From Chloroflexota bacterium (GTDB lineage: Bacteria > Chloroflexota > Dehalococcoidia > GIF9 > AB-539-J10): a stretch of DNA of 64,000 bases. Below are positions 21,435-59,639 of this stretch, in pieces (within the stretch, counting starts at the first letter, position 1; each line of letters starts with the position of its first letter). The translations under genes and the position numbers were made by a program. The notes beneath the pieces were generated by a model. That model searched no databases. It saw only the letters and a list, made by a program, of their open reading frames with translations, and was not told where the DNA came from. The DNA lies in assembly GCA_037444365.1 (NCBI GenBank), contig JBBIMO010000006.1, positions 167 to 64,166 on the forward strand, given 5' to 3'.

Positions 21435-21639
21435 GGCCTGCTAACTTTATAGCAATCCCCGGCATAATGCCAACCCTTGATTCTGAATTGACGTTGCAGG
21501 CAAAACAACAGCAAACAGGCCCTCAGCCACGAGATACAAACAACCCAACTACCACCCCTTACCTCAAGTAGCTAAGGGCCTGTATAAGGCATCCGAAGCC
21601 TATGCTGTGTCAGAACTTGATAACGTTTCTTGCCTGGTA

Positions 21640-21993
21640 CTACCCAGGCTTTGCAACTGCCCACAGAGCCTTCACCGCAGAAATAACTGCAGCTGGTGCT
21701 ACCAGGACAGCAATGCGGCTCAGTATGTTGCCCAGTACCTCACCTACGCGCAGTGTTCCCAGTGGAGCAAAGGCGTTGCCCACCACAACCAGGGCGATCG
21801 TGGCTAACAACAAAAGCATGACCTCTTTTGCCGTAACGTTCAGAAAGCCGATTATTATTCCCAGTATTACCAGCACTACGACGATGGTCTGGTTCTCGGG
21901 CATCAAGAAACCGGCAATGATGGCCAGAATGAAACCAATGATGAATGCCCAGAAACCCACGAAGCCCAGAAATCCTTTTTTCTCTGTAGCCAT
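21640..21993 (-). CDS. Small integral membrane protein (about 3-4 TM), function unknown
   Basis: 117 aa, almost entirely hydrophobic helices ('FLGFVGFWAFIIGFILAIIAGFL', 'IVVVLVILGIIIGFL', 'LLLLATIALVVVG'). A GGAGGG RBS is present. Confidence 0.5.
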   Translation of the reverse strand: MATEKKGFLGFVGFWAFIIGFILAIIAGFLMPENQTIVVVLVILGIIIGFLNVTAKEVMLLLLATIALVVVGNAFAPLGTLRVGEVLGNILSRIAVLVAPAAVISAVKALWAVAKPG

Positions 21994-22266
21994 ATGACCC
22001 TCCTTTTCTTTGATGTATCGAATGCAAAGCTGGCTAGGCTTTGCCCCCGATAATTGCTGAGGCAGCGTCCTTCTTCACAGATGTGGTGTGACTGCTTCTG
22101 CTGCCCTTTCGCCGGCAGCCTTCGTCACATGCGCCATCCATCTGCCTGTTAGAAGCAATCAGCCTCCAGCAAAGTGCCCCAATAGCATTTCGGGGCAGCT
22201 CAGAATTAGCCTGCGTTTTTGTACACCTCCTTTTTCAAAGTCGAGGCATTGTTTCCATACCTCGCA

Positions 22267-22471: not shown

Positions 22472-23077
22472 ATGACCTCCATCATTGTCGCCGGCGGCAG
22501 AAGCCTGAGACTCGGGCGAAGCAAGGCCCTGGAGATGATCGGAAACAAGAGCCTTATCCAGTGGGTAGTTGACCGGCTTTCTGTCCTCAGCACCGAGATA
22601 ATCATAGCCACTGCTCATGGCGAGGCAATCCCCTGTTCCTCGGCGATAAGGATGAAGACTGCTGCAGATATCTATCCGGGCAAGGGACCTCTGGCGGGCA
22701 TTTACTCGGGTTTAACAGCCTCATCCAGTCCACGAGCCATTGTTGTTGGCTGCGATACACCTTTTCTGAGCGTGGGCTTGCTCAAGTACATGACTCGAAT
22801 ACTGGGGGACTGTGATGTCGCCCTGCCCAGAATTGGAGAGATGATCGAGCCCCTGTGCGCAGTGTATTCCAGGAATTGCTTAGCTCCTATCCAGGAGTTG
22901 CTGGAGCGAGATGAACGCAGCATCAGAACACTTTTCGCCATGGTGAGGGTGCAATACGTTCAAGAGGACGAGATAAACAGGTTTGACCCGGAGCACCTAA
23001 GCTTCCTCAATATCAATAGCCATGAAGACCTGGATAGGGCTAGACGGCTGGCAGCAGAGAAGGGAGAGCTCGTTTGA
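22472..23077 (+). CDS. mobA: Molybdenum cofactor guanylyltransferase
   Basis: The N-terminus 'IIVAGGRSLRLGRSKAL' and 'PGKGPLAGIYSGL', 'VVGCDTPFL' are MobA motifs. This fits the bis-MGD formate dehydrogenases nearby. Confidence 0.8.
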   Translation: MTSIIVAGGRSLRLGRSKALEMIGNKSLIQWVVDRLSVLSTEIIIATAHGEAIPCSSAIRMKTAADIYPGKGPLAGIYSGLTASSSPRAIVVGCDTPFLSVGLLKYMTRILGDCDVALPRIGEMIEPLCAVYSRNCLAPIQELLERDERSIRTLFAMVRVQYVQEDEINRFDPEHLSFLNINSHEDLDRARRLAAEKGELV

Positions 23078-23109
23078 CCTCTTCGCTGTGGATGGCAAAA
23101 CGACTGAAG

Positions 23110-23583
23110 TCACTTGTTAGCATGGAGAGAGGCTGCTTGAGCTTGATGAATTACCTTGGCTGGCTCCTGAGCATCCTTCCTCAAGGGACTGGGGCCGAGC
23201 TTCCTAATCTCGGAGATGAAATCAGTTACCACCTGAGCAAACCTTTGCCCCTCGGCAGCGGACACCCACTCCAGCTTCAGCCGTTCCGGCTCGATTCCCA
23301 ACTGGGGCAAGAGTTTCTTCAGAAGCAACATCCTCCTCAACGTCTTGTAGTTCCCCTCCAAGTAGTGACAGTCCCGGGGGTGGCATCCCCCTATGAAAAC
23401 ACCATCAGCCCCCCGTTGAAAGGCTTCCAGAACATACACAGGGGCTACCGCTCCAGAACACATCAGCCTTATCATTCTCAAATTCGGTGGATATTGAAAC
23501 CGGCTTATCCCAGCAAGGTCAGCACCAGCATAGGCACACCAGTTACAACAGAAGCCAATAATCCTGGGCTCGAAACTATCCAT
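23110..23583 (-). CDS. mvhD: MvhD-like (methyl-viologen-reducing hydrogenase delta subunit family) [2Fe-2S] protein
   Basis: 'IIGFCCNWCAYAGADLAG...MIRLMCSGAV...FQRGADGVFIGGCHPRDCHY' is the MvhD/FlpD signature. Confidence 0.85.
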   Translation of the reverse strand: MDSFEPRIIGFCCNWCAYAGADLAGISRFQYPPNLRMIRLMCSGAVAPVYVLEAFQRGADGVFIGGCHPRDCHYLEGNYKTLRRMLLLKKLLPQLGIEPERLKLEWVSAAEGQRFAQVVTDFISEIRKLGPSPLRKDAQEPAKVIHQAQAASLHANK

Positions 23584-23710
23584 CTAACTCCTTCGGAGAA
23601 ACCCCAATTTCCGGGCTCTAAACGGATTCAAATCTCTAACCTGAAATAACAAAACTCTCTTATTCCTGGCTTTGCACATTTGTGCTTTGGCATCTAATGC
23701 TTGGTATCTC

Positions 23711-26700
23711 CTATCCTCCTGCTAAAGCAGCGTCAAGCATTGCCGAGACTTCGCCTCTGGTGAATCCTCGCTGCTGAACAGCGCCCGAGGGACAGGCGGC
23801 ACAACAAGTGCCACAACCCTTGCAAAGAGCTTCGTTTACGGCAGAAACTCCCTTGTCTCGATTCACAGCTATTGCCCCGTAAGGGCAAAGGACTTCACAC
23901 ACACCACAACCGCTGCATAGAGCCTCGTCGACGTAAGCGACTATTCCTTCACCAATTATGGCATCCTTGACCAGTATGGTAGTAGCACGAGAGGCAGCAG
24001 CTTTAGCCTGGGCAATGCTCTCCTCGAGAGATTTCGGCGCGTGAGCCAGCCCGCACACAAACACCCCATCCGTAGCAAAGTCAACGGGACGCAGCTTGAC
24101 GTGTGCTTCAAGGAAAAAGCCGTCTTGATTCACGGGCACCTTGTATAGCATGGCAAGCTCCCTCGCATCCGGTGAAGATGCCATTGCTACACTCAGGCCA
24201 ATGATGTCGGCGTCTATAGCTATCTTATCGCCAAGCACCTTATCATTGACCTCCACCCTGAGCAGAAGCTGACTACCTTTCCTCTCCTGTCTCACCTTAG
24301 GCTCTTCTTCCGGCTCGTAATGCAGGAAGATAATCCCTTTCCGCCTTGCTTCTTCATAATACTCCTCGTAGAATCCGTATGTCCTTATATCCCGGTAAAG
24401 GATATAGACATTCATAGCAGGTTTCATCTCTTTGAGTTTCAGGGCGTTCTTAATCGCCTCGTTGCAGCATACCCTGGAGCAGTAAGGCCGTTCCTCGTTT
24501 CGACAACCCACACACTGAATCATGACCAGATTGCCGCAGTCAACGATATCGGGATTCCTCTTGACTATCTCTTCCTCAAGTTCAAGTTGGGTGAGCACTC
24601 TGGGGTCTCTTCCGTAGAGATATTCATCTGGCTTGTGCTCTTCAGCTCCCGTGGCAATTATGGCGACGCCATGGTCTATCTTCTCTATGACTCTACCTCT
24701 ATACCTCATTATCTCTGTGGTGAAGTTGCCAACATATCCGTGGACGTCCACGATCCAGGTATCTGTATACACTCTAATTCCGGGATGTTCCTCAACTTCC
24801 TTAACAAGCCTGCTCAGGAATTTCCGGACATCCGTGCCATCCAGGCTGTAGTGTATCCTTCTGGCTATCCCACCAAGCACGTTGCTTCTTTCGATAAGAT
24901 GAACCTCGAATCCCTGCTCCGCTAATGTCAAAGCGCTGGTCATTCCTGCCACCCCTCCCCCAACAACCAACGCCGCCCGGTTGACCGGCAAAGACAGAGG
25001 CTTCAGAGGCTCATTCAGCCTGGCTTTGGCTACCGCCATTTTCACCAGGTCTTTGGCCTTCTCAGTTGCCTTGTCTGGCTCATGCATATGTACCCAGGAA
25101 CACTGGTCCCGGATATTCGCCATCTCGAAAAGATAGGGGTTCAGCCCGGCCTTCCTGATTGTTTCACGGAACAAAGGTTCGTGAGTCCTCGGGGTACAAG
25201 ACGCCACGACAACCCGATTGAGCTTGTACTCCTCAATGACCTTCGTTATCCTCTCTTGAGTATCCTGAGAACAGGTGAAGAGATTTCTTTCAGCATAAAC
25301 CACATTCGGCAAGGTTCTGGCAAATTCACTGACATCAGGGACACTTACATACCCGCCGATATTTATTCCGCAGTGGCAGACGAAGACTCCGATTCGCGGT
25401 TCTTCCCCCGCCACATCTTTTTCCGGCGGGTATTCTTTTGCCCTAGTCAGAGTGTTTCTTGCCGGGGCTAGAAGAACAGATATTTCACCCGCAGCACCGC
25501 TCGCCTGCATCACTGTCTCGGGAATGTCTTTAGGTGCCGAAAAAGCCCCACAGACGAATATTCCCGCCCTGGAGGTCTCCACCGGTGAGAAAGGCTTTGT
25601 GTGGCAAAACCCATAAGGATTAAGCTGGATTCCAACTTTCTTAGCAAGCTTAACCAATTCTGGAGAAGACTCGAAACCGACAGAAAGCACCACCATACCG
25701 AATTTCTCAGTCTTTGTTGCACCATCCTCGGTAGTGAATTTGACTAGCAGGTCGCCCGTGCTATCTGCCGCTTCAACGTTGTACACTTTCGACCTGACGA
25801 ATCTCATGCCGACCTCGTCTCTGGCTCGTTCATAGTACCTATCAAAGTCCTTGCCGTGAGTCCTGAGGTCCATGAGGAAGATAGTTGCTTCCAAGGGAAC
25901 AGTGCTGTGTTCCTTGGCGATCATTGCTTCCTTGATAGCGTAAGTGCAACAAACAGAAGAGCAGTAAGGCCTGCCGTGTTTGGTATCTCTGGAGCCAACG
26001 CACTGGAGAAAGGCTATCTTCTGGGGCGGTGTAAGATCAGAAGGCCGCAACAGGTTCCCTTGGAAAGGACCAGAGGCAGACAATATCCGCTCAAATTCGA
26101 TGCTGGTCACCACGTTACGAAATCTGCGGTATCCAAGTTCATATTGAATGGAGGGGTCGAAAAGCTCATATCCACCGGCGAATAGAATAGCACCGACCTC
26201 CAGTTCCAGTTCCCTCGGTTTGTCCTCAGCCAGAACTGCCTTTGCCTCGCAGACGTTAGAGCAGCCCTTACAATCCATCTGCCCGGTAATCTTAAGACAG
26301 TTGTTGATGTCTCTCGTGTACTTGAGAGGAACTGCCTGGGGGAAAGGCACGTAGATGGCTTTCCTCTTAGCCAGGCCTTGGTTGAATTCGTCGGGAAGCA
26401 CGATAGGGCAGACATTGATTCGAGAAATGGCCTGCTTCTTACAGGCTTCTATACATTTCCAGCAGCCAGTGCAATTGAAGGTATTGTAGATAGGCTTCTC
26501 GCAGTTGCATTCCTCTGCTTGTTCCTTTGAGCAGGTTATGCCGATGAAGATCAGTCCGTCTGTGTTGAGGACACCTGTCTCGGCAAGTTTGTCCAGAGCT
26601 CGTTCATCACATCCCCTAGATACTATCGCAAACCGCTTATCCGGCCACTTGGTCTTGACCTGAAGGGCAAACTTGGCGACGCTCTGTCGGGGATCTATCT

Positions 26701-26875
26701 CCATCTCTGACAGTTCCTCCTTGTTTGTGAAGAGACAGAGACCGACGTGACCCCATCTTCTGCGCAGACCAATCACTCCATCGTAGCCCTCGCTCAGAAT
26801 CTCCCGAGCCTTGGCTATTATTGCTTCCTTCTCCAGCATTCTTTTTGTAGCAGCTGCCAGCGTCATTTCGCTCAT
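23711..26875 (-). CDS. Large tandem HdrA-like flavo-iron-sulfur protein (1054 aa), made of three parts
   Basis: Residues about 1-130 are an unassigned domain. Residues about 130-490 are an HdrA core C-part lacking its own dinucleotide-binding start: they match HdrA from the inserted ferredoxin domain onward ('PDEFNQGLAKRKAIYVPFPQAVPL', 'FLQCVGSRD...PYCSSVCC', 'GIFVCGAFSAPKDIPETV') but have no GxGxxG. Residues about 495-1054 are a second complete HdrA-type unit with an N-domain ('IGVFVCHCGINIGGYV'), an FAD site ('LVVGGGVAGMTSAL') and a C-terminal ferredoxin domain ('CSGCGVCEVLCP', 'CKGCGTCCAACP'). Confidence 0.85.
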   Translation of the reverse strand: MSEMTLAAATKRMLEKEAIIAKAREILSEGYDGVIGLRRRWGHVGLCLFTNKEELSEMEIDPRQSVAKFALQVKTKWPDKRFAIVSRGCDERALDKLAETGVLNTDGLIFIGITCSKEQAEECNCEKPIYNTFNCTGCWKCIEACKKQAISRINVCPIVLPDEFNQGLAKRKAIYVPFPQAVPLKYTRDINNCLKITGQMDCKGCSNVCEAKAVLAEDKPRELELEVGAILFAGGYELFDPSIQYELGYRRFRNVVTSIEFERILSASGPFQGNLLRPSDLTPPQKIAFLQCVGSRDTKHGRPYCSSVCCTYAIKEAMIAKEHSTVPLEATIFLMDLRTHGKDFDRYYERARDEVGMRFVRSKVYNVEAADSTGDLLVKFTTEDGATKTEKFGMVVLSVGFESSPELVKLAKKVGIQLNPYGFCHTKPFSPVETSRAGIFVCGAFSAPKDIPETVMQASGAAGEISVLLAPARNTLTRAKEYPPEKDVAGEEPRIGVFVCHCGINIGGYVSVPDVSEFARTLPNVVYAERNLFTCSQDTQERITKVIEEYKLNRVVVASCTPRTHEPLFRETIRKAGLNPYLFEMANIRDQCSWVHMHEPDKATEKAKDLVKMAVAKARLNEPLKPLSLPVNRAALVVGGGVAGMTSALTLAEQGFEVHLIERSNVLGGIARRIHYSLDGTDVRKFLSRLVKEVEEHPGIRVYTDTWIVDVHGYVGNFTTEIMRYRGRVIEKIDHGVAIIATGAEEHKPDEYLYGRDPRVLTQLELEEEIVKRNPDIVDCGNLVMIQCVGCRNEERPYCSRVCCNEAIKNALKLKEMKPAMNVYILYRDIRTYGFYEEYYEEARRKGIIFLHYEPEEEPKVRQERKGSQLLLRVEVNDKVLGDKIAIDADIIGLSVAMASSPDARELAMLYKVPVNQDGFFLEAHVKLRPVDFATDGVFVCGLAHAPKSLEESIAQAKAAASRATTILVKDAIIGEGIVAYVDEALCSGCGVCEVLCPYGAIAVNRDKGVSAVNEALCKGCGTCCAACPSGAVQQRGFTRGEVSAMLDAALAGG

Positions 26876-26882
26876 GCGCCCG

Positions 26883-28922
26883 TCACTCCTTGCAGATTTT
26901 CACAGCGCAAACCTTCAACTCAGCGATTTTGGCCTCAGGGTCCAAATATCTACTCGTAAGCACATTGGCCGCACATTCGGCGAAGTGGAAAGGTATGAAC
27001 ACAACGCCAGGTAGGATTTCCTCTGTGACCAAAGCCCTTATTCGAATCTCCCCTCGCCGCGACTGCACTTTCACCATGTCACCTTGAGATATAGAGAGCT
27101 TTTTAGCATCCTTAGGGTTGATCTCGACATATCCGGTGGGTAGCTCCCTTTCCAGTCTCGGAATTCTGCGAGTCATCGTTCCGGTGTGGAACTGGAACAT
27201 CAATCTGCCCGTGGTGAGAATAAATGGATACTCTGCGTCAGGTAACTCAGCAGGCTCTTTGAAGTCAACAACAAGGAATTGCCCCTTGCCTCGAGTGAAA
27301 GCGTCCTTGTGAAGGAATCTGGTTCCGGGATGATCCTTGGAAGGACATGGCCAAGACACAATCTCTCCTTTATCCAAGCGCTCATAGGATATGCCGGCGT
27401 AGATTGGCGTGAGCGACACAATTTCCTCCATAATCTCCCTAGAAGATGCGTAGCTGAAGTCTGTTGCTCCCATCCTCTTGGCTAGCTCACTCACGATGAC
27501 CCAGTCAGGTTTGGAATCTCCTACCGGCTCCATAGCCTTCCTTACTCTCTGAACTCTTCTGTCCGTTGCAGTGAACGTGCCTTCTTTTTCGGCAAACGAA
27601 CAGGCTGGAAGTACCACGTGAGCAAACTCAGCAACCTCGGAAAGGAATATATCCTGCACCACCAAGAAATCAAGCGAACTAAGGGATTTCTTCACGTGAT
27701 TTATGTCGGCATCTGACAGCGCCGGGTTCTCTCCTACGATGTACATTGCTCTAACCGCGCGGTCAATAGCAGCCTCAGTCATTTCGGTTGCTCTCAGGCC
27801 GGGTGTGGGAGACAGCTTAGTTCCCCAGGCCTTTTCGAATTTATCCCTCGCTTTGCTATCAACAACTGGCTGGTAGCCCGAAAAGACGTTGGGCAGCGCG
27901 CCCATGTCGCAAGCACCCTGGACATTGTTCTGCCCGCGCAACGGATTCACTCCTGTGAATTCGCGGCCAACATTGCCTGTGAGCATTGCCAGGTTGGCAA
28001 TACACAGCACATTCTCGGTGCCCGTGGTGTGCTGAGTTATGCCCATACCATAGAGAATGCTGCCCCTTTCGGCTCTGCCGTATGCCTTGGCGGCCTTCTC
28101 CAGTAGAGCTTTGCTGACACCTGTTATCTGACAGACCTTCTCAGGTGGATATTCCTTAAGCTTTTTCTCCAGCGCCTCAAATCCTTCGGTCCGCTCTCTA
28201 ATGAAGTCCCTGTCCTCAAGGCCCTCTCTAGTAATGATGTGCATGAGTCCGTTCAAGAGAGCAGCATCGGTGCCTGGCTTATGCGGGAGGTAGATGTCAG
28301 CAAAGTCAACCAGCGGCGTACGACGAGGGTCAGCAACAATGAGTTTCGCGCCTTTCTCCTTCGCTCGCATAACCCTCAGGCTTACGAGGGGGTGCTGCTC
28401 CGTTGTGTTGCTTCCTATCACGAAGATGCAATCTGCATGTTCTATTTCCGGCACGCTATTTGTCATTGCGCCGCTGCCGAACGCTTTCGCTAGTCCGACC
28501 ACTGTCGGGGCGTGGCAAAGGCGTGCACAGTGGTCAATGTTATTCGTGCCTATGACAGTTCGGGCGAATTTCATCACCACGAAGTTTTCTTCATTCGTAC
28601 ACTTAGCGGACGACAGAATCCCTATAGAGTCTGGCCCATACTTCTCCTTGGTGACGATGAGGCGTTTCGCCACTATGTCCAGAGCCTCTTCCCAACTTAT
28701 AGGTTCAAACTTGCCGCTTTGCTTTATCAAAGGCGACTTGAGCCGATCAGGATGGTTGATGAAGTCGGCAGCGTTTCTTCCCTTTATACAGGGCTTTCCC
28801 TCACTCATTTCATCTGTCTTGCAGGGGACAACGCCGGTGACCTGGCCGTCCATAACCTGGAGATACAACTGGCAGCCACAGCCACAGAACGGGCAGACAG
28901 TCAGCACAAAGTCGCTGTTCAT
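26883..28922 (-). CDS. fdhA: Formate dehydrogenase catalytic (alpha) subunit, Cys-type, short form (bis-MGD molybdo/tungstopterin enzyme)
   Basis: It has the N-terminal [4Fe-4S] motif 'CPFCGCGCQ...CIKG' and the active-site '[11 protein letters not shown]', with Cys136-His137 where Sec-His sits in seleno-FDHs. The C-terminal MopB_CT-like barrel reads '[19 protein letters not shown]'. The start ATG overlaps the upstream stop (ATGA). Confidence 0.85.
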
Positions 28923-29902
28923 TTCCTAAGCTCCGGTCTTATCAAGGGTCTTTCCTTAACTCTCTTGATAAGCCTCCTTTTTGTCTTTTCATCTATGCCC
29001 GGAATGACTTCAAAAATGGACTCAGGGGACTGGCGCCACATTAGCTGATGAATAGTGCGCAATGGTATATCCATGCCACAGGCCTCTTCGCACATGCCAC
29101 AGTTTACACACAAATTGGCAACGCGATAAGCTCTTATCACCTGGAACAAGGGCACGGACGGAGGTATTTCGCCGGGCTTGATCCACTCTGCATCGTCTAG
29201 CTCAGATCCGTCATAGATCCACACTGGGCAAACATCGCGGCATCCAAAGCACTTGATACACCGGCTAAGTTCTGCCTGCCAGAACTTCTTTCGCGACTCT
29301 TCATCCATCAAGCTTACTCGCTGACTTAGAGTCTCTCGTCCTTTCCCCTCCTGCTGCTCAGGGAGAAGCTCTGTCAGCTTTCGCCGTTCGAGCGAAACAT
29401 TAGTCATGGCGTGGTTTTCCTTGTTCTCTTCACGGCAAGCCAAGGCACATTCGCCACACTGAACGCACTTCGCTTCATCTATTAGTATGCGGTCCACCCA
29501 TATCTCTTCTTCTCTTTCCTTAAGGTTGCTGACGTCTGACTGCGCACACAGTCCACAACCAGTGCATTTACTCACGTCGATGTATCGAGGTCTCTGCAGT
29601 ATCTTCACTTTGAAACACCCTTCCTGTCCTGAGACCTCTTCGAGTTCAGCGTTGGTTATTAGCTGAATATTGAGATGTCTGCCAGCCTCTACCAACTTGG
29701 GCGATAAGATACACATCGAACAATCGTTAGTTGGGAAGGTTTTATCTAGCTGAGCCATTACACCGCCGATTGAGGGCGACTTCTCCACCAGGTAAACGTA
29801 ATATCCGGACTCAGCAAGGTCGAGAGCTGCCTGAATCCCCCCTATGCCTCCACCGACGACAAGGACTGCTCCTACTTTGCCGTTCCCATTTTCCTTCTTC
29901 AT
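28919..29902 (-). CDS. HdrA N-terminal (FAD/dinucleotide-binding) fragment fused to a Cys-rich Fe-S domain
   Basis: '[54 protein letters not shown]...[18 protein letters not shown]' corresponds to the first about 120 residues of the HdrA thioredoxin-reductase-like core. After that come '[11 protein letters not shown]', '[12 protein letters not shown]' and '[11 protein letters not shown]'. The start is set at the ATG with a GAGGAAAGGGG RBS (M32 of the track ORF). Confidence 0.7.
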
Positions 29903-29915
29903 AGCACCCCTTTCC

Positions 29916-30383
29916 TCACAGTCTTTGCAATGCCTTGGCAGCGAGCTCCGAAGGTTTGACTTCGACCCCCCGAGACCTAGAGTCAACAATTGCACTCACC
30001 ATCTCATGACGCAGTTTCTGGGAAAACACGTCGATTTCCTTTATCTTTTCAACAAAAGGTGAGGCGACATATCCCTCCCTCACCGCCAGGCTTCTCAGGG
30101 CCTTCATGATATCGGCAAAATCAACATTCTGGGGACAATGTCCCTGACAGTTATAGCACTGGATGCAGAACCAGATTGTCTCTGAGGAAAGGACTTCCCT
30201 CCTCATACCCAGCAGTACCATACGAATGATCCGACGAGGGTTGAACTTCTGGTCGATATCAGCAACAGGGCAGCTTGCAGTGCACAGGCCACAGGCAAAA
30301 CAAAGCTTGACATTCTCTCCGCCAGGCTCATTGGCAACATCGTACTTAAACTTTGTATCCAGTTCACTCAAAGCTACAGTCAT
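29916..30383 (-). CDS. hdrC: HdrC-like 2x[4Fe-4S] protein
   Basis: '[12 protein letters not shown]...NPRRII' and '[15 protein letters not shown]' fit the HdrC/Fer4_17 pattern. Length is 155 aa. Confidence 0.75.
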
Positions 30384-30418: not shown

Positions 30419-31312
30419 CTATAGTAGTCCGGCAGCCCCCAATATCTCAGGCACTTTTTCCTCCCGTCCAATAAACATGATGTGCACTCCATCACAGACT
30501 TTCTCCTCCTTCATTTGCCTTATCATCCGGGCTGCTATTTCTATTCCTTTGGCAATCCCTGTTCCCTTCGGGGCCTGGGACAGTTCATCAATGATACGTT
30601 GGGGGATAGAGATACCAGGGACGTTCTCATTCATGTAGGCAGCCATCTTTGCCCCGATAACAGGCACTATGCCGCCAAGGATCTTGACCTTTCTATCTCT
30701 CTTACGGATAAACTCCACAAATCTCTTCAAGTCATCAAGTTCATAAACCGCCTGCGTCTGAATGAAGTCCACTCCCGCCTTGAGTTTCTTTTCAACCTTG
30801 ATAAGCTGCGGCTCAAGCGGATCAGCTGAAGGAGTACCTGTTGTTCCAATACAGAAGTCAATGCCTCCATCAAGTTCATTGCCCGCCATATCCTTGCCGG
30901 ACTTCATGGTGTGAACAAGATGGATGAGCTGCACCGAATCGAGGTCAAACACTTGCTTGGCTTCCTTATGATCACCAACATCAATGGAATCACCGGTAAG
31001 GCAGAGAATATTATTCACTCCCCGCGAGCACGCGAACAGAAGATCTGCTTGAATCGCCAGACGATTCCGGTCGCGGCAGGTTACCTGAAGTATCGGCTCG
31101 CCACCGTGTTCTTTGATCAAGAGGCAGACCCCCAGGGAAGGATAGCGCATGACGGAGCTTTGATTGTCAGTTACATTCAGAGCATCCACCTTATCCTTGA
31201 GAAGCTCAATATGCTCTATCGCCTTCGACACGCTGGAGCCTTTCACCGGCCCCACCTCGGCTGTTACAACGAAGCGCTTTGTCTTAAGAGTCTCCCTAAA
31301 AGGCTTTGCCAT
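30419..31312 (-). CDS. metF: Methylenetetrahydrofolate reductase, paralogue 1 (Hdr-linked)
   Basis: 297 aa with 'VVTAEVGP', 'DALNVTDNQ', 'QVTCRDRNRLAIQADLL', 'NNILCLTGD' and 'GVDFIQTQAVY'. This is the acetogen-type short MetF pattern. Confidence 0.85.
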   Translation of the reverse strand: MAKPFRETLKTKRFVVTAEVGPVKGSSVSKAIEHIELLKDKVDALNVTDNQSSVMRYPSLGVCLLIKEHGGEPILQVTCRDRNRLAIQADLLFACSRGVNNILCLTGDSIDVGDHKEAKQVFDLDSVQLIHLVHTMKSGKDMAGNELDGGIDFCIGTTGTPSADPLEPQLIKVEKKLKAGVDFIQTQAVYELDDLKRFVEFIRKRDRKVKILGGIVPVIGAKMAAYMNENVPGISIPQRIIDELSQAPKGTGIAKGIEIAARMIRQMKEEKVCDGVHIMFIGREEKVPEILGAAGLL

Positions 31313-31323: not shown

Positions 31324-31983
31324 TTAAGCTTTTCCCGCCTGGATCTTCCCGGGCCTTTTCACAGCCCGATAATTCTTCGGCGCGTAGTAATTCCGCATCA
31401 AATCAAGCCTCCCTTGCTTTTCCAGCCTGCGATAAATCAGAACCCACCCACAATCCTTATCCGGATCTATTTCGCACTTTCCTCCCCTCTTCGTACCGCC
31501 ACAAGGCCCATTAAGAAGCCCCTTGGCACAGCGAACTATGGGGCAGACACCCCCCGTTCGATCCAGAAAACAATCGCCGCAACCACCACACATTTCTATC
31601 CAAAGCCCTTCTCCTTGTGGCATCCCGATAAAGACAGTGTTGACTCCCGGAAACACCGGCTTGTCCTCAAACATCTCAGCCATAGTTTGCACTCCCGACC
31701 CACAGGCTAAAGAGAGAACCGCATCAGCTTCCGCAACCTTATCCTTAATCTCTGCTACCATCTCCCTTTCGCATTGTCTCTCCACAGTAGCCTCAATGGC
31801 GACAATTCCATTCCCTTTTGCACTTCTAGCTAACCTCAGTTGTGAGGCAAGTATCGCCACCTCTTTCTCTCCACCAGCCCAACAAACAGTGACGCAGGTA
31901 CCACAACCCGCCACAAGCACCTTCTTGTAGGGGGCAACTAGTTCCTTGATCTCTTCCATAGGCTTTCGTTCGGCGATTATCAT
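31324..31983 (-). CDS. metV: MetV (MTHFR C-terminal-like Cys-rich subunit), paralogue 1
   Basis: 'VAGCGTCVTVC', 'CGGCGDCFLDRTGGVCPIVRCAKGLLNGPCGG' and 'CEIDPDKDCGW' match the MetV pattern. It is directly upstream of metF. Confidence 0.8.
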   Translation of the reverse strand: MIIAERKPMEEIKELVAPYKKVLVAGCGTCVTVCWAGGEKEVAILASQLRLARSAKGNGIVAIEATVERQCEREMVAEIKDKVAEADAVLSLACGSGVQTMAEMFEDKPVFPGVNTVFIGMPQGEGLWIEMCGGCGDCFLDRTGGVCPIVRCAKGLLNGPCGGTKRGGKCEIDPDKDCGWVLIYRRLEKQGRLDLMRNYYAPKNYRAVKRPGKIQAGKA

Positions 31984-31984: not shown

Positions 31985-34021
31985 TTACCTCCCAGGCTCT
32001 TTTGCCGTCTTGATCATCTCATTTACTGCTCCAACAAACTTGTGGGGCGCATTGGGGCTGAGGTTGAACATCGCAACACGTCTGCCATCCACCCTAATCT
32101 CTTTCAACAGCATGTCGCAGTATTTCACCCTCTCTTTGGCTCTGGTGTTTCCAGTGATGTGATGGCAGGCGCCCTCTTCACACCCCATCACCAGCACTGC
32201 TGCTGCACCCTTTTCGAAAGCCTTCAGGATATGAAACACATCCACCTGGCCAGCACAGGGCACCCGGATTATTCGCAGATTCTCCGGGTAATGAAGCCTT
32301 AGTCTTCCCGCTAGATCAGCAGCAGGATAAGCAGAACGCTCACAACAAAACGCTACATGGCACCCATTCAACGCCTTTCCTACCGCCTCAAGCTGAGTCA
32401 CGATCTCCTCATCTCTATGACCTTGAAATCTTATCGCCTTAGCCGGGCATATTGCAGCGCAAATGCCACAAGCATAGCAAGCGAGGTCTGAAATCCCGGC
32501 CACCTCCTTGCTATTATCTGTTCGAGTTAGGTGGATAGCGCCATGCGGACAAACACGAATGCAAGTAAGGCATGCCACGCACTTCTGAGGGTCAGCTCTC
32601 ACTTTCTCAACATCCACCGGAATTCTTCCCGCGGACAAGAGCTCGTGCACAGACATGACCACACTGGAAATATCTGCCAACACACTCCCTATGCCTGAGT
32701 CACCCCGACATCCACCAACAAAAAGTATTCCCTTTCTCTCCGAGCCAACGGGATACAGGTGGACGTTCTCATCCTGTAAGAAGCCTCTGGAGTCTCTCCT
32801 CACGTTCAGCAAGAGATTCAAGGTTCCAGTTCCCTCTCCAGGGAGATAAAGCTCCTCCGCAACCAGAACGTCACAGGCCAAGCTTATATCTTCTCCGAGA
32901 AAAGTATCTCTAGCCTCGATTCCTACCCGCCCGTTCTCCACAGCAATCCTCGGCGATGCATCGGTCTTCACAAACACCACCCCGCAGTTTCTCGCCTCCC
33001 GGTAAAGTCTCTCCATTCCTTGGCCATCTACTTTAGCGTTCTTGTAGAAGACGTAAATCTCGCTGCCCCACTTCTTCTTGGCTGCCAAAGCGTTGTTAAG
33101 GGTAGCCACCGCGGCAAAGCGAGAGTTCTCATCGGAAAAGTCAAACATCAAACATATGGTTCTAGGCTCTTTCTCCAGATTAGGATTAACAAGCATACTG
33201 CAGAACTGCTCTTGCGATACAATGTTCGGGCCGGCGATCGCCCCGCCTCCAGTTCGCAACTCCGGTCCGAAATCCGACGCAAGCCTAGTTTGACATCCTA
33301 TGGCGAGGACTATCGCCCCATACTTGCGGATGATTTCCTCTACCCCTTTTCGTATCACTACTCTGAAATCACCTACCTTCCCCTCTACTGCCGTCATCTG
33401 AGCAGACGTCAAGATCTCAATGTTTTCATCTATCTCTGCCGCACTTATCATTGAATCTGTGTCAAAACAGCAGAAGCGTTCCGATTCCTCGGCCCCAATT
33501 CCCAGAAGCGCCTCTTCCTGCAATAGGGTTGTGCGCAGCCCAATTCGAGATAGCTGGAGAGCCACATTGATTGCCGAGAATCCGCCACCGACCACGAGAA
33601 CCTCTTTGTTCACGGGCAATTCCTTCTTCTCTATTGGCTGAAGTGACCGAGCCCTGCGTACCGCCATCTCCATAAGCTCCACAGCCTTCTCAGTAACATC
33701 CCCTTCATGAGCCCAAGAGCACTGCTCCCTGATATTTGCCATGGCCAGTAGGTGCTCATTTAGCCCAGCCTCTTTCAATACTCCTCGGAAAATATGCTCC
33801 TGAAATTCAGGAGAGCAAGCAGCAACGACAACTCCCTCTATGTGCTCCTCTTTGATACGGGAAAGCATCTTCTCCCTTCCTTCCTCAAGACACAGGTTGG
33901 AACTCAAGTCTACAGAGGCGACACCGGGGAGTGCCGCTGCCTTTCCAGCAGCGATATCAAAGTCGATATTCTTTATGGCTCCACCGCAATTACAAAGAAA
34001 AACGCCTATTCTTCTATCCAT
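31985..34021 (-). CDS. HdrA-like protein with C-terminally fused MvhD domain (678 aa)
   Basis: It has an N-domain ('IGVFLCNCGGAI...ANIREQCSWAH'), a dinucleotide site ('LVVGGGFSAINVAL') and a ferredoxin domain ('CVACLTCIRVCP', 'CYACGICAAICP'). These are followed by MvhD: 'VAFCCERSAYPAADLAG...IIRVPCAGQV...FEKGAAAVLVMGCEEGACHH'. Confidence 0.85.
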   Translation of the reverse strand: MDRRIGVFLCNCGGAIKNIDFDIAAGKAAALPGVASVDLSSNLCLEEGREKMLSRIKEEHIEGVVVAACSPEFQEHIFRGVLKEAGLNEHLLAMANIREQCSWAHEGDVTEKAVELMEMAVRRARSLQPIEKKELPVNKEVLVVGGGFSAINVALQLSRIGLRTTLLQEEALLGIGAEESERFCCFDTDSMISAAEIDENIEILTSAQMTAVEGKVGDFRVVIRKGVEEIIRKYGAIVLAIGCQTRLASDFGPELRTGGGAIAGPNIVSQEQFCSMLVNPNLEKEPRTICLMFDFSDENSRFAAVATLNNALAAKKKWGSEIYVFYKNAKVDGQGMERLYREARNCGVVFVKTDASPRIAVENGRVGIEARDTFLGEDISLACDVLVAEELYLPGEGTGTLNLLLNVRRDSRGFLQDENVHLYPVGSERKGILFVGGCRGDSGIGSVLADISSVVMSVHELLSAGRIPVDVEKVRADPQKCVACLTCIRVCPHGAIHLTRTDNSKEVAGISDLACYACGICAAICPAKAIRFQGHRDEEIVTQLEAVGKALNGCHVAFCCERSAYPAADLAGRLRLHYPENLRIIRVPCAGQVDVFHILKAFEKGAAAVLVMGCEEGACHHITGNTRAKERVKYCDMLLKEIRVDGRRVAMFNLSPNAPHKFVGAVNEMIKTAKEPGR

Positions 34022-35299
34022 TCAATGGCTTCCTTGCTTGCCTCGCCTTTGGCTTGCGGATTGGCCTAGCACTTGCATTGCCTTCGAAGCTGCAGCTATC
34101 CCGTGAGAGATGGAACCGGGTATATCCTTGGGCCCTTGGCAAGTTCCGGCGACGAACACACCATCAACATTGGTTTCATTTGAACCGATGGAATCCCTTA
34201 CATCAAAGAATCCTTCGTCAGTCAAATTTATCCCCAGAATCCTGGCCAAATCCCAGGAGTTCCTGCCAGGAGAAATACCCACAGAAAGGACCACAAGGTC
34301 AAAAGTGTCCCGACAAACCTTTCCCTCAGAGACATCTTCAAACTTCACCTCAAGCTCGCCAGGTAAGGTCTGCAGAACCTCCACTGGTACTCCCCTCACA
34401 AATCGTATACTTTGCTTGTATTTTTCATAGAATTGAGCAAAGCCCTTCCCGGCAGTCTGCAGGTCGATGTAGAAGATAGTCACCCTGGTATCAGGACTCT
34501 GATATTTGATAAGCCCGGCCAGTTTCATAGCATACTTGCAACACACCTGCGAGCAGTAACCGTGACCCTCGTCTCTCGAGCCAACACACTGAACAAAAGC
34601 AATGTTCCGGGGCTCTTTACCGTCTGCGCCAAGCCTGAGACGGCCTTCGCGAGTGAAAACCTGCTCCAGATCAAGACCAGTCAGGACATTGGAGTACCTA
34701 CCGTAGCCGAGAGAACCCTTCATTCTGGCGTCAAAAACATCAAAGCCGGTGGCAACAATGATGGCACCGACGTTCAACTCCTGCTCTTTTGGCTTGAGAG
34801 CAAACTCGATAGCTTGGGTAGGGCAGTTCGCCCGGCAGACATCGCATTTCTCCCCTTTGGAGCGCAGACAGAGTCCTTCATCGAGAACGTAGGAAAAAGG
34901 TGTTGCTTCAGCAGAAGGCGGATGAATCGCCTTTGGGTTAACGGGGCAGACCTCGGTGCAAACGCCGCAAGCTATGCATCTCTGTTCATCAACATGGTGG
35001 GGCTGCTTGACTATTCCGACTTGAAAGTTGCCCAGCTCGCCCGTAAGTCTTGCTATCGTGGAGTAGGTCAGGACCCTAATGCGAGGATGAGCTACCGCTT
35101 CCTTGATCTTGTCGAGAACTACACAGGCAGAACACCTGGAACAGACATCCGTTGCCTTACAACAAAAAGAGGCACTATGCCCACCAACCACCGCCTCCTT
35201 CTCAACCAGATAGACACTTATACCCGCATTAGCTAGCTCTAACGCTGACGCTACCCCTGATACACCCGACCCAAAAACCAGAACGCTTTTGTTTTCCAA
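34022..35299 (-). CDS. HdrA-core-like flavoprotein with inserted ferredoxin domain, but no N-domain or C-terminal ferredoxin domain (425 aa; TTG start)
   Basis: 'VLVFGSGVSGVASALELANAG', the inserted Fe-S motifs 'CIACGVCTEVCP' and 'CDVCRANCP', plus 'FVQCVGSRD..GYCSQVCC' and 'GVFVAGTCQGPKDIPGSI'. The only in-frame start is TTG, with an AAGGAA RBS. Its stop abuts the next gene's start. Confidence 0.8.
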   Translation of the reverse strand: MENKSVLVFGSGVSGVASALELANAGISVYLVEKEAVVGGHSASFCCKATDVCSRCSACVVLDKIKEAVAHPRIRVLTYSTIARLTGELGNFQVGIVKQPHHVDEQRCIACGVCTEVCPVNPKAIHPPSAEATPFSYVLDEGLCLRSKGEKCDVCRANCPTQAIEFALKPKEQELNVGAIIVATGFDVFDARMKGSLGYGRYSNVLTGLDLEQVFTREGRLRLGADGKEPRNIAFVQCVGSRDEGHGYCSQVCCKYAMKLAGLIKYQSPDTRVTIFYIDLQTAGKGFAQFYEKYKQSIRFVRGVPVEVLQTLPGELEVKFEDVSEGKVCRDTFDLVVLSVGISPGRNSWDLARILGINLTDEGFFDVRDSIGSNETNVDGVFVAGTCQGPKDIPGSISHGIAAASKAMQVLGQSASQRRGKQGSH

Positions 35300-35343: not shown

Positions 35344-35742
35344 CTACTTTTTTAGCAACCCCTCAACCCTGTTCACTAGTTCCTTGGCGTCAACTGGCTT
35401 CTGAAGATAATCATCTGCCTCCATCATCATTCCTTCCCGCATGGAAAGATGCATCTTCTCCCTGTCTTCAGGATAAACAGTCAGCATCAACACCGGGATG
35501 TTGGAGAAGAAATAGTACTTCTCGTCGGTCTTGAGCTCATGGCAGACATCAAATCCGTGTTTGCCGGGCATTATCACATCCAGTATGATTAAGTCAGGCC
35601 TCTCATCCACTACTTTGCGCAAACCTTCGAACCCATCATATGCAGATATGACCTCATAGGACTTGGGCTCCAGGATTCTTCTAACCACTGTGTGTACATC
35701 ACGGTCATCGTCAATGAGCAAAATTCTGGTTTGCTTTAGCAT
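35344..35742 (-). CDS. Receiver-only response regulator (CheY-like)
   Basis: 'RILLIDDD', the phospho-acceptor 'LIILDVIMPG' and a conserved 'K' in 'YLQKPV'. At 132 aa it has no output domain. Confidence 0.85.
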   Translation of the reverse strand: MLKQTRILLIDDDRDVHTVVRRILEPKSYEVISAYDGFEGLRKVVDERPDLIILDVIMPGKHGFDVCHELKTDEKYYFFSNIPVLMLTVYPEDREKMHLSMREGMMMEADDYLQKPVDAKELVNRVEGLLKK

Positions 35743-36136
35743 CCTTTCCTCCTTTAGACAAAAGCTTCTCTACACGCTGGAGCAACACAAAGGGCTCTAT
35801 GGGCTTCTCTATATAGTCATCAACAGACAGCTTACGGCCTAGTTCCAGTTCGTAGCGCCTCTGGCTAGCCTCCTCCCTGACTGAACTGATGACAAGAACC
35901 GGAATGTCAGGATATCCTCTCTTCTGGCAACCCTCCAATTCCCTAACCACAGCAAAGCCATCCATCCCTGGCATTAGAAGATCCAAAAGCATTATGTCTG
36001 GCTTCTCTTCTTTCAACTTCTTCAACGCCTCAAATCCGTCACAAGCCTCAATTACCTGATAGGAGCGTGACTTCAATACACTGGCGATTGCCAGCCGCAT
36101 GTCAGGATCATCATCCACTATCAAGACCTTCGGCAT
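35711..36136 (-). CDS. Receiver-only response regulator (CheY-like)
   Basis: 'KVLIVDDDPD', 'IMLLDLLMPGMDG' and 'YIEKPI'. At 141 aa it has no output domain. It overlaps the next response regulator by 32 nt. Confidence 0.85.
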   Translation of the reverse strand: MPKVLIVDDDPDMRLAIASVLKSRSYQVIEACDGFEALKKLKEEKPDIMLLDLLMPGMDGFAVVRELEGCQKRGYPDIPVLVISSVREEASQRRYELELGRKLSVDDYIEKPIEPFVLLQRVEKLLSKGGKDAKANQNFAH

Positions 36137-36141
36137 ACGCT

Positions 36142-37299
36142 TTACTCTGCTTGTTTCGGAGCCTTGGGCAAAACAAAGGTGAACGTGGTTCCCTTGCCTG
36201 TCTCAGGACAGGGACTTGTTGCCCAAATCTTGCCACCGTGACCCTCGACTATCTTCTTGCTTATGGAAAGCCCCAAGCCAGCTCCTCTCTTTTCCATGTC
36301 CAGACCCTTATAGAAACCATCGAATACTTTGGCCAAGTCCTCAGTGGGAATTCCAACACCTGTGTCAATCACATCAACACGCACATGATCCTTCTCGTTC
36401 CTCGCTCTAACCGTTATCCCGCCCGTCGGAGTGAATTTTATGGCATTGGATAGCAGGTTCGTCATGACTTGCTTGAGCCTGCCGGCGTTCCCTACAATCG
36501 TGGGAAGCTGTCTGGGCGCTGCGACATCCATCTGCAATCCCTTTTCCACAGCTAACGGACGCATCATCTCAGTGCAGTCTTCTATCACTTTCAGCAAGGA
36601 GACTTCCTCAGTCCTGAATTCCCCAAAATCAACGCGCGAGAAGTCAATCATGTTGCTTATCAAATTGAGAAGGTCAGAAAGCCTCTTGCTGCTCCTTTGC
36701 ACGATGTTCTTCTGCTCATCACTGAGCTCTCCGACAAAGCCATCAAGCAACAGCCGATTGTAGCTCTCTGCGGCAGCCAAAGGGGCCTTCAAGTCATGAA
36801 AGATCACCGACAGAATGCGCTCCATCGTTTGTTTAGTATGCTGCAGTCTCGAAGCAACCACTTTCACAAGGTTGTTCGCTACTTTGTAACCCATTTGAGG
36901 GTTTTCATCCAGCAGGGCTCTGAGTTTCTCTCCGTCCAGTGCGATAATCTCAGTCCTCTCCAGACACCGACCCGAGGAAGTAAGAATATGAGGTTCCATT
37001 AGTGCAGACCAGCAGAAACTGCTCCCTTCCGATAATACATCGATTGTGGCCCTTTCAGCTGCGCTACGGCTTATGGTAAGCTCCGTCTCCAGAGCTACCT
37101 TGCCCGATTTGAGAGTCTGAACATAGTTACAGTGCGCACCCTCGCAGAACATGACCGCCCCTGCTTCGTAGAACTGCTCCTGGCAAAGCGGGAGCAGTTT
37201 GTCCAGTTCCTGGTCGGTCAAGCCCTGGAACATCTCTGAAGACCTCAGGGTTTCCTTGATTGAGTCGAGTTCTGTTGTTGCTTCCATTGGCCGCCGCAT
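36142..37299 (-). CDS. Cytoplasmic sensor histidine kinase with N-terminal cyclic-nucleotide-binding-like domain
   Basis: It has a cNMP-like N-domain ('FQGLTDQELDKLLPLCQEQFYEAGAVMFCEG'), the H-box 'FHDLKAPL', the N-box 'NLLSNAIKFT' and G-boxes 'DTGVGI' and 'GAGLGLSISKKIVEGHGGKIW'. There is no TM segment. I moved the start to the internal ATG (37299 or 37287) to avoid overlapping the divergent metF. Confidence 0.85.
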   Translation of the reverse strand: MRRPMEATTELDSIKETLRSSEMFQGLTDQELDKLLPLCQEQFYEAGAVMFCEGAHCNYVQTLKSGKVALETELTISRSAAERATIDVLSEGSSFCWSALMEPHILTSSGRCLERTEIIALDGEKLRALLDENPQMGYKVANNLVKVVASRLQHTKQTMERILSVIFHDLKAPLAAAESYNRLLLDGFVGELSDEQKNIVQRSSKRLSDLLNLISNMIDFSRVDFGEFRTEEVSLLKVIEDCTEMMRPLAVEKGLQMDVAAPRQLPTIVGNAGRLKQVMTNLLSNAIKFTPTGGITVRARNEKDHVRVDVIDTGVGIPTEDLAKVFDGFYKGLDMEKRGAGLGLSISKKIVEGHGGKIWATSPCPETGKGTTFTFVLPKAPKQAE

Positions 37300-37415
37300 A
37301 TTATAACCACTTCGGCAGATGATTGCAAAAAACCCTAACGCGGAGTAACACCCGAACATTGCCCTAAATGGGACATTCTGGCATACTGTGCTAAAATCAT
37401 GTCGGGAGTCCACAA

Positions 37416-47863: not shown

Positions 47864-47867
47864 TAGT

Positions 47868-53494: not shown

Positions 53495-53553
53495 GCTAAC
53501 CCTCCTTCTGTGCTATCAGCTATCAGTTAGCTGAATACTGGTTACTCGTGTAT

Positions 53554-54795: not shown

Positions 54796-54798
54796 CTC

Positions 54799-55350: not shown

Positions 55351-55362
55351 TTTGCCCTCCTT

Positions 55363-57675: not shown

Positions 57676-57678
57676 TTC

Positions 57679-58584: not shown

Positions 58585-58703
58585 TCCTGATCCTCCTTCA
58601 CTTTACCAAGGTTATCTGACAAGCCGCCTGCCATTCTGCGCCCCAACTTGCCGGGGCGAAGCATCCAGGCCCTTCGATATGGCTCAGGGTGACAAACTGA
58701 TTG

Positions 58704-59591: not shown

Positions 59592-59639
59592 TTCGAATAC
59601 CTCCACTCTGTTGCTTTGAGGGCCGAAACAAACCATCGA

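Follow-up and report, generated by a model that had tools for sequence, protein, structure and literature searches.

A HdrA gene divided around a formate dehydrogenase catalytic subunit in a Dehalococcoidia operon for methylene-tetrahydrofolate reductase

The operon and the anatomy of the divided HdrA

A stretch of 64,000 nt from a Chloroflexota bacterium (Dehalococcoidia, GIF9, AB-539-J10; GenBank assembly GCA_037444365.1, contig JBBIMO010000006.1), here called the window, carries on its minus strand a tightly packed operon of nine genes, which runs from 35299 to 23110. Its products are, in this order, p425, p678, the two methylene-tetrahydrofolate (methylene-THF) reductase subunits MetV and MetF, the HdrC homologue p155, p327, the formate dehydrogenase (FDH) catalytic subunit FdhA, p1054 and MvhD (Table 1). 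The subject of this report is the cassette p327-FdhA-p1054, in which the first flavin unit of a HdrA protein is encoded in two pieces with fdhA lying between them. From p425 to p1054 the spacing of the genes varies between a 4-nt overlap and a 35-nt gap, and MvhD begins 127 nt after p1054. The stop of p327 and the start of FdhA overlap in an ATGA, and the FdhA stop is separated from the p1054 start by 7 nt (TGA cgggcgc ATG), with AAGGAG upstream; both junctions were read directly. The ATG of p327 at 29902 lies 13 nt past the stop of the HdrC-like gene, and this start is supported because the homologues share the N-terminus MKK(E/Q)NGNGKVGAV. Positions, lengths and junctions of the open reading frames (ORFs) agree with a first-pass annotation of this DNA. 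MetF, MetV, a fused HdrA, MvhD and HdrC are encoded together here, as in the Moorella-type methylene-THF reductase. Pfam searches of the operon genes and of the further window ORFs covered turned up no HdrB/CCG protein, and a HdrB/CCG query gave no tblastn match in the window above the print threshold. A scan of the operon for promoters and terminators returned no more sites than shuffled sequence.

Numbering of HdrA refers in the following to the solved HdrA, 5ODC. Residues 12-157 of p327 match HdrA 145-304 (E 2e-41), whereas p1054 matches HdrA in separate blocks, its residues 135-379 corresponding to HdrA 246-472, 491-730 to 2-241 and 870-1039 to 469-638 (overall E 7e-180). Within p327 the GGGIGG motif for binding of flavin adenine dinucleotide (FAD) is at residues 17-22, Pfam FAD_oxidored/NAD_binding_8 at 13-51, and C61 in DKTFPTNDC is the equivalent of Cys197 and, like GGGIGG, invariant in the alignment of the p327 family (A1). 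The short ferredoxin copy that follows has C113, C116, C119, C146, C149, C152 and C156 as invariant cysteines in A1. The HA4 site of 5ODC is formed by C386, C399, C403 and C404, and the flavin residues E356 and K409 have described roles at the bifurcating flavin (PMC12054007). Counterparts of all of these exist in both units of p1054: C292/C305/C309/C310, E262 and K315 in unit 1, together with the C-terminal FAD motif GIFVCGA..PKDIP, and C788, C799, C803, C804, E767 and K809 in unit 2. K315 corresponds to the flavin-N5 lysine. The HA4 cysteines and the Glu/Lys residues are invariant or nearly so in the corresponding alignment of p1054 (A2), in which the C-terminal FAD motif of unit 1 is invariant as well.

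In p1054, Pfam places dinucleotide-binding motifs only at residues 633-697, within unit 2; unit 1 has none, and a cryptic FAD start there was rejected by Pfam and by the HdrA alignment. The FAD domain of unit 1 is not present on one polypeptide: HdrA 145-245 is found on p327 and HdrA 313-567 on p1054, with fdhA in between. Judged by the alignments, this flavin domain could fold only across the two chains. The first-pass annotation had placed the FAD start and the adjacent motif region on p327 and let the HdrA homology of p1054 begin at the inserted ferredoxin, which Pfam and 5ODC both bear out. Its further view that the two pieces are complementary holds for the flavin fold, but not for the ferredoxin, of which p327 carries a short and p1054 a complete copy. 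What it had called a second complete HdrA-type unit lacks the inserted ferredoxin and the DKTFPTNDC/Cys197 motif. The Cys197 ligand (p327), which in HdrA completes the N-domain cluster of the partner, and the N-terminal iron-sulfur (FeS) domain (p1054 491-625) sit on different units, as in type II HdrA. Since Cys197 and the inserted ferredoxin are in one unit, and the N-domain and C-terminal ferredoxin in the other, p327 and the p1054 units together make up an asymmetric type II HdrA.

The first two genes of the operon are paralogues of the same units. Residues 16-116 of p425 align to p327 and 108-414 to p1054 135-472, and p678 4-546 align to p1054 494-1049. This pair appears partly degenerate, as the thioredoxin reductase (TrxR)-like unit of p678 does not have the four HA4 cysteines. 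In p425 a Cys-rich CCKATDVCSRCSAC replaces a motif of 12 residues.

Table 1. Operon genes and the domains of p327 and p1054, in order of transcription (window positions; Mo/W-bisPGD, molybdenum/tungsten bis-pyranopterin guanine dinucleotide; pLDDT, predicted local distance difference test; AF2, AlphaFold2)
Feature	Position	Strand	Description	Basis
p425	34022..35299	-	425 aa, first operon gene; unsplit HdrA unit-1 paralogue with FAD start, Cys-rich Cys197-region, inserted ferredoxin, TrxR part 2	Pfam; alignment to p327/p1054
p678	31985..34021	-	HdrA unit-2 paralogue fused to MvhD: N-domain, degenerate TrxR-like unit without HA4 cysteines, C-terminal ferredoxin, MvhD	Pfam FlpD at residues 556-674
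MetV	31324..31983	-	methylene-THF reductase small subunit	Pfam PF12225, E 1e-33
MetF	30419..31312	-	methylene-THF reductase	Pfam PF02219, E 3e-37
p155	29916..30383	-	HdrC homologue, 155 aa, 2x[4Fe-4S]	8rvv_C E 9e-22; 5odc_C E 5e-19
p327	28919-29902	-	327 aa	ATG at 29902
p327 1-112	29567..29902	-	N-terminal segment of TrxR-like FAD domain, HdrA unit 1	aligns to HdrA 145-245
p327 113-160	29423..29566	-	shortened copy of inserted ferredoxin, CTGCGLC start, 7 Cys	aligns to HdrA 246-304
p327 161-198	29309..29422	-	variable charged linker	poor conservation in A1; low pLDDT in AF2 model
p327 199-327 + stop	28919..29308	-	FdhB C-terminal-type FeS domain (FdhB'-C)	structure matches
FdhA	26883-28922	-	679 aa, Mo/W-bisPGD, Cys type	Pfam; structure matches
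p1054	23711-26875	-	1054 aa	
p1054 1-134	26474..26875	-	FdhB'-N domain	named from same domain in small FdhB' proteins adjoining FdhA
p1054 135-215	26231..26473	-	complete inserted ferredoxin, HdrA unit 1	aligns to HdrA 246-312
p1054 216-480	25436..26230	-	second FAD/TrxR segment, unit 1	HdrA alignment; residues invariant in A2
p1054 491-625	25001..25405	-	HdrA N-terminal FeS domain, unit 2	491-730 align to HdrA 2-241, E 9e-80
p1054 626-975	23951..25000	-	TrxR-like domain, unit 2, with own GGGVAG	Pfam; HdrA alignment; A2
p1054 976-1054 + stop	23711..23950	-	C-terminal 2x[4Fe-4S] ferredoxin	HdrA alignment; Pfam Fer4 at 979-1032
MvhD	23110..23583	-	[2Fe-2S] adaptor, last gene	Pfam FlpD, E 5e-56

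Exchanged halves of HdrA and FdhB' and the spread of the cassette

The catalytic subunit gave its best match to 9t1s_L (E 3e-238) and also matches FdhF of the hydrogen-dependent CO2 reductase (7qv7_S, E 2e-227). Its active site HCARLCHAP aligns to HCARL(Sec)HS of 9t1s_L, so that Cys replaces selenocysteine (Sec) and is followed by His; the Pfam matches are PF04879, PF00384 and PF01568, and RGQNNVQG is conserved. By these matches it is a canonical formate dehydrogenase catalytic subunit, in line with the Cys-type FdhA assigned in the first-pass annotation. There, p327 had also been credited with an extra Cys-rich domain. Such a domain is present, and it can now be given an identity: p327 199-306 match residues 270-375 of the FdhB subunit 9t1s_M (E 1e-19), as well as 7bkb_E 280-381 and 8rvu_E, which makes it the C-terminal FeS domain of FdhB.

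At the other side of fdhA, p1054 begins with a domain of 134 residues containing four invariant cysteines (C89, C115, C123, C125). It is without any Pfam match, and neither in p327 nor in p1054 1-134 did Pfam match FrhB_FdhB_N or FrhB_FdhB_C, even at E values up to 10. A hidden Markov model (HMM) of the N-domain did not match the canonical FdhB of one cassette-bearing locus (L081), and the local match to FdhB was weak. An assignment to the FrhB/FdhB_N family was dropped on these grounds, and the domain is called FdhB'-N by context. A Foldseek search with the p1054 model yielded HdrA and TrxR folds only, with nothing for this domain.

This context is informative. In one locus (L018) an FdhB'-N-like domain and an FdhB'-C-like one are united in a protein of 268 aa, whose gene is directly upstream of a Sec-type FdhA. 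The N-domain HMM matches every large subunit of the split cassettes and, in addition, about 45 small FdhB' proteins of 265-300 aa. Correspondingly, 45 loci show an order without exchange, that is, an unsplit HdrA, MvhD, FdhB' with both its N and C parts, and FdhA. In p1054, no linker separates FdhB'-N from the inserted ferredoxin's first Cys motif, and in p327 a variable linker of ~40 residues leads from the ferredoxin to FdhB'-C. As the small FdhB' of the un-swapped loci unites both halves, the window genes are the product of a reciprocal exchange: HdrA (A1-A2) and FdhB' (B1-B2) became A1-B2 (p327) and B1-A2 (p1054), with fdhA between. Thus, on the evidence of the domain order, the FeS partner of the FDH is divided as well and its halves reside on the two halves of HdrA, a feature that had escaped the first-pass annotation. 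FdhB' could then fold only across the p327 and p1054 chains. With both FdhB' and the FAD domain reconstituted across two chains, FdhA would be locked onto the arm formed by the inserted ferredoxin.

To find the same split in related genomes, species-representative genomes were scanned with the C-terminal part of p327, and 35 loci were recovered; counts apply wherever the contig extends. An alignment of full-length p327 as query returned generic HdrA loci only, because the DKTFPTND pattern is universal in HdrA, and p327 alone retrieved none. The order of p327-type protein (TrxR-like N-segment plus FdhB'-C), FdhA and p1054-type protein (FdhB'-N, unit-1 C-part, unit 2) is found in 35 out of 35 species-level genomes, and MvhD follows the cassette in most loci in which the contig reaches that far. 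Hence the suggestion of the first-pass annotation that the flavoprotein is assembled around the FDH subunit stands, the FAD start and the remainder of the domain being on different polypeptides throughout. As labelled, the genomes belong to Dehalococcoidia, other Chloroflexota, Desulfobacterota, Acidobacteriota, Fibrobacterota, Lentisphaerae and Planctomycetota, about six phyla, with Desulfobacterales, Desulfatiglandaceae, Desulfohalobiaceae, Syntrophobacterales, Sedimentisphaerales, Pirellulales and Phycisphaerales among the finer labels; one bin carries the label Woesearchaeota. All 35 loci come from organisms other than isolates. More metagenome contigs, including a Spirochaetota one, show the same order. 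The two closest loci, both labelled Dehalococcoidia, are 90-93% identical in the N-part of p327 and 86-87% in the p1054 units.

Homologues of p327 with 314-340 aa are numerous and bear in their sources only the names 'ferredoxin' or '4Fe-4S dicluster protein'. The family proper is narrow, only 8 clusters (50% identity) reaching E 1e-30. A narrow family distributed over about six phyla suggests horizontal spread of the cassette. Directly upstream of it, MetV-MetF-HdrC is located in the window and at least 12 further loci. A p327 variant of 460 aa begins with a HdrA N-domain; in this case FdhA divides one single HdrA, and HdrC and HdrB adjoin. In five species-level loci (L083/L117, L118, L121, L122; Lentisphaerae, Sedimentisphaerales, Pirellulales) MvhD is followed by the hydrogenase genes MvhG/MvhA, the large subunit matching MvhA with E 4e-109. 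In-frame unsplit forms with FdhB' inserted were absent among the best 150 representatives, the longest of which had 488 aa. Desulfobacteraceae loci have a protein of ~320-370 aa after MvhD (L104:9592-10695, L108:14457-15425 and equivalents in L105, L106 and L109), which weakly resembles FdhB'-N at its start and has an FeS end like that of FdhB-C; it may be a third adaptor of FdhB' type.

Different modules at the inserted ferredoxin

Close relatives of p1054 include proteins of ~1490 aa that are 80-86% identical to it over residues 188-1053. In the metagenome locus L089 (L089:8001-12476; JGI 3300057050 Ga0568865_0000635) one of them (P0128), a single HdrA of 1491 aa with a p327-like N-terminus, takes the place of p327-FdhA-p1054. 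It shows 74% identity to p327 1-121 and 85% to p1054 188-1053, and an NfnB/GltD-like insert of ~500 aa lies between the two Cys motifs of its inserted ferredoxin. The gene order of L089 is that of the window: kinase, two response regulators, p425, p678, MetV, MetF, HdrC, the 1491-aa gene, MvhD, MobA and TsaD, with flanking genes 69-91% identical to those of the window. In close relatives, the FDH split and the NfnB insert thus appear to be alternatives that occupy one and the same locus.

A second type of split, cut at the same point, was found in L088 (L088:3071-9146; JGI 3300060621 Ga0568923_0001332). Here the order is a 133-aa TrxR N-terminal fragment, a NuoE-like protein (153 aa), a NuoF-like protein (640 aa) and a protein of 1089 aa, in which a NuoG-like 2Fe-2S/4Fe-4S N-terminus precedes the inserted ferredoxin and the remainder of HdrA; MetV-MetF-HdrC is upstream. 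The opposite strand of this contig carries an FDH-type split cassette, too. Plain unsplit forms of ~1010 aa also exist. Since NfnB, NuoEF and FDH modules occur at the same point, the site of the inserted ferredoxin acts as a socket for modules.

A foreign redox module at this site is known from HdrL, or type III HdrA (Desulfobacterium autotrophicum HdrL; HdrA9-11 of the anaerobic methanotrophic archaea (ANME) of group ANME-1), and L089 is exactly of this kind. In HdrL the module is of the NAD(P)H type and in frame within a single polypeptide, whereas in the window it is a multi-subunit FDH; this would be the reason why the host hdrA gene is split and the FeS partner of the FDH divided. Whereas the GltD/NfnB insertion is already known, no description of split HdrA forms was found in the literature, though most subscription journals lay outside the search, so that this absence is no proof. 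The impression of the first-pass annotation that the gene arrangement had not been described thus remained: as far as searched, the system of the window is a HdrA-based bifurcating complex with FDH, of a known kind, but of undescribed gene and protein architecture.

Possible electron routes, genomic surroundings and known relatives

In HdrA-type complexes the donor feeds in via MvhD/BamF and the C-terminal ferredoxin, and the high-potential branch leads via HA4/E4 to HdrC/B or BamD (PMC9012536, PMC13580544, 10.64898/2026.04.10.717634). The low-potential exit ends in free ferredoxin, in polyferredoxins feeding Fmd, or in BamC and its tungsten-pterin (same sources). [quoted passage not shown]

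Against this background we lean towards the view that p327, FdhA and p1054 form one obligate complex, in which CO2/formate would be the low-potential and methylene-THF the high-potential couple, the donor being delivered by MvhD. FdhA would be fixed on the inserted-ferredoxin arm of that unit which is expected to hold the bifurcating FAD, and this arm, by homology with Mvh-Hdr(-Fmd), Fdh-Hdr-Fmd and BCRII, would be the low-potential branch. Mid-potential electrons would enter by MvhD together with unit 2's C-terminal ferredoxin, coming from H2 via MvhAG in the Planctomycetota and Lentisphaerae operons, and the HdrC homologue would lead to MetFV as the high-potential branch. Where an Mvh hydrogenase comes after MvhD, as in some operons, H2 would join CO2/formate and methylene-THF to close a set of three substrates. 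The reaction that we predict is 2 donor(red) + CO2 + methylene-THF <-> 2 donor(ox) + formate + methyl-THF; it would need no free ferredoxin and would fit the methyl branch stoichiometrically. In the oxidative direction of the Wood-Ljungdahl pathway the complex would confurcate, formate oxidation pulling the difficult oxidation of methyl-THF; formate (-430 mV) and methyl-THF (-200 mV) would then deliver to a carrier at about -315 mV. Complex formation, the chain of clusters and the direction of flow are our reading of the observed domain content, ligand conservation, connectivity, synteny and module replacement. It is a more tentative step, in our view more likely wrong than right, to regard the assembly as the bacterial equivalent of the Wolfe-cycle supercomplex of methanogens, working without ferredoxin. 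Electrons from MvhD would be bifurcated at a FAD held by the two polypeptides, with the tethered FdhA making formate and MetFV making methyl-THF, so that the methyl branch would have its first and its last reduction in a 1:1 coupling.

Several points weigh against this assignment of the branches. CO2/formate (-430 mV) is close in potential to H2 (-414 mV), so that either role of formate is thermodynamically allowed, and formate is a proven donor to Hdr in methanogens. The NAD(P)H-type modules (NfnB-like, NuoEF) in the sockets of paralogues are classical mid-potential donors, and the socket could therefore be an input. The operon contains with p425 and p678-MvhD a second HdrA pair, to which MetFV might belong instead of to the FDH cassette, and other loci have genuine HdrB/CCG proteins upstream and no MetFV (L081, L085, L088, L092/93, L097/98). 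The N-domain of p1054 has only a weak local match to canonical FdhB (residues 86-128, via the L018 homologue, domain E about 2). Finally, AF2 monomer models were poor (mean pLDDT 56 for p327 and 61 for p1054), too low for domain packing.

Two other readings can be drawn from these points. In the first, formate is the mid-potential donor, its electrons passing from FdhA through FdhB' and the inserted ferredoxin to the bifurcating FAD, from where one would leave to methylene-THF via HdrC/MetFV and the other, by MvhD or elsewhere, to ferredoxin or some different low-potential acceptor. This would fit the use of formate by methanogen Fdh-Hdr complexes, to whose FdhA subunits the window FdhA is closest, and the NAD(P)H-oxidising modules in the same socket of paralogous loci. 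The Moorella Hdr-MetFV enzyme is reported, as cited in PMC5736913, to oxidise NADH, and colinear HdrBCA-MvhD-FdhBA clusters have been interpreted likewise (PMC5736913). Formate as donor would, on the other side, leave unexplained the separate MvhD that is kept in the cassette, followed in the five loci named above by an Mvh-type hydrogenase; there would be two donors and no obvious low-potential exit. We consider this reading plausible but the less likely one, and prefer CO2/formate on the low-potential branch because that arm is the low-potential output in HdrA-type complexes. The formate-driven bifurcation on the methanogen Fdh-Hdr model, as put forward in the first-pass annotation, is not supported in that form: FdhA appears tethered via FdhB' to the low-potential arm, and a separate MvhD remains.

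In the second, the operon encodes two complexes, a reductase of MetFV and the HdrA' of p425/p678-MvhD, and an independent FDH-HdrA-HdrC-MvhD complex with another high-potential acceptor, both being co-regulated since they serve the Wood-Ljungdahl pathway. The operon's two full sets of HdrA units, and its pair of MvhD domains, would agree with this, as would the cassettes accompanied by HdrB/CCG proteins in place of MetFV. However, in every MetFV-type operon the HdrC homologue stands between MetF and p327, with HdrB absent; without MetFV the window cassette would have no evident high-potential acceptor, and the flavin unit of p678 is degenerate. Two separate complexes are therefore improbable. 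A mis-assembly that placed fdhA into hdrA, or a broken hdrA pseudogene, can be dismissed with near certainty, given the same order with intact frames in 35 independent genomes and many metagenome contigs, the high identity of the two closest loci, the translationally coupled junctions and the added conserved domains with invariant cysteines on both fragments.

Directly upstream of the operon (35344-37425, minus strand) are a histidine kinase and two tandem single-domain response regulators, which are candidate regulators; this arrangement is kept in L089 with 86-89% identity, where the kinase has a domain binding cyclic nucleotide monophosphates. Long ORFs at 23074-23649 and 21602-21997, both on the plus strand and antisense to or overlapping mvhD and its downstream region, translate into low-complexity sequence and probably do not represent genes. 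Taken as a whole, the window forms a Wood-Ljungdahl supercluster with further MetF/MetV, a NuoG-type FdhA with NuoF-like partners, an NiFe hydrogenase, CooC and an archaeal-type carbon monoxide dehydrogenase/acetyl-CoA synthase (CODH/ACS). Two more MetF (37416-38339, plus strand; 44112-45041, minus strand), a second MetV (45073-45723, minus strand) and a DUF3786 protein (43465-44115, minus strand) were located, so that three MetF paralogues lie inside 15 kb. A second FDH of 900 aa with NuoG-like N-terminus (2Fe-2S, 4Fe-4S) overlaps the gene of a 628-aa NuoF-like flavoprotein (38371-42923, minus strand); it is likely NAD(P)H-linked and possibly bifurcating, which would give the organism at least two cytoplasmic FDH systems. 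An NiFe hydrogenase pair (46304-48731, minus strand; small subunit 287 aa) has a large subunit whose nearest matches are group-1 periplasmic [NiFeSe]/[NiFe] enzymes (E 1e-130) rather than Mvh. The CODH/ACS genes (52124-59636, minus strand) encode CdhA with a ferredoxin insert, CdhB epsilon, CdhC, CdhD, a CdhD-like protein and an AcsE-like pterin-binding protein, and NuoE/NuoF-like genes and CooC are downstream of this set.

Type II HdrA proteins (Moorella HdrABC-MvhD-MetFV, ANME HdrA3/4, BamE) share with the window system two complementary TrxR-like units and the association with MvhD, HdrC and MetFV. In the window, unit 1 is cut at the inserted ferredoxin, and either piece bears one half of an FdhB-like protein in fusion; the operon has no HdrB, and the Cys197-unit comes first, the reverse of ANME HdrA3/4. 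Closest in gene content are colinear clusters (HdrBCA-MvhD-FdhBA of marine Chloroflexi and Desulfobacula; D. autotrophicum hdrA loci with fdhB/fdhA), which consist of the same blocks, a type II HdrA, MvhD, a small FdhB' and FdhA. There, HdrA and FdhB' are intact and the order is hdrA-mvhD-fdhB'-fdhA, whereas here halves are exchanged and fdhA stands between the chimeric genes. With the F420-dependent FDH FdhAB the window system has in common an FdhA closest to 9t1s_L and the C-terminal FeS domain of FdhB, but it lacks detectable FrhB_FdhB_N/_C domains and has Cys instead of Sec. The methanogen Fdh-Hdr-Fmd and Mvh-Hdr-Fmd complexes (7BKB; 9SW2-6) are alike in that a HdrA complex is wired through the inserted-ferredoxin arm to a Mo/W-pterin CO2 enzyme with no need of free ferredoxin, here predicted from genes, and FdhA and FdhB'-C are homologous to methanogen FdhAB. 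In methanogens, according to the literature, FDH is the donor at the MvhD side and Fmd reduces CO2 via polyferredoxins, whereas in the window FDH would sit on the inserted-ferredoxin arm; and the high-potential partner is HdrB with the heterodisulfide there, MetFV by prediction here.

The division of a flavin domain between two genes is rare, and this is a clear case of a reciprocal exchange of halves that would enforce complex formation. Which co-substrate Hdr-linked methylene-THF reductases use, and with what energetics, has been a question since the Moorella complex was described, and so has the force behind methyl-THF oxidation in the reverse Wood-Ljungdahl pathway. If the proposed wiring is true, it would show which third substrate the Hdr-MetFV enzymes of these lineages use and provide a testable reaction. 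A CO2/formate catalyst hard-wired to a defined flavoprotein arm beside MetFV, and this in many lineages of anaerobes from the subsurface and from sediments, would amount to a natural experiment. The inserted-ferredoxin site of HdrA would then be an evolutionary plug-in socket, which may be empty or hold NfnB, NuoEF or FDH, and the occurrence of three modules at one site suggests a general rule by which unannotated 'HdrA-like polyferredoxin' genes of metagenomes may be read.

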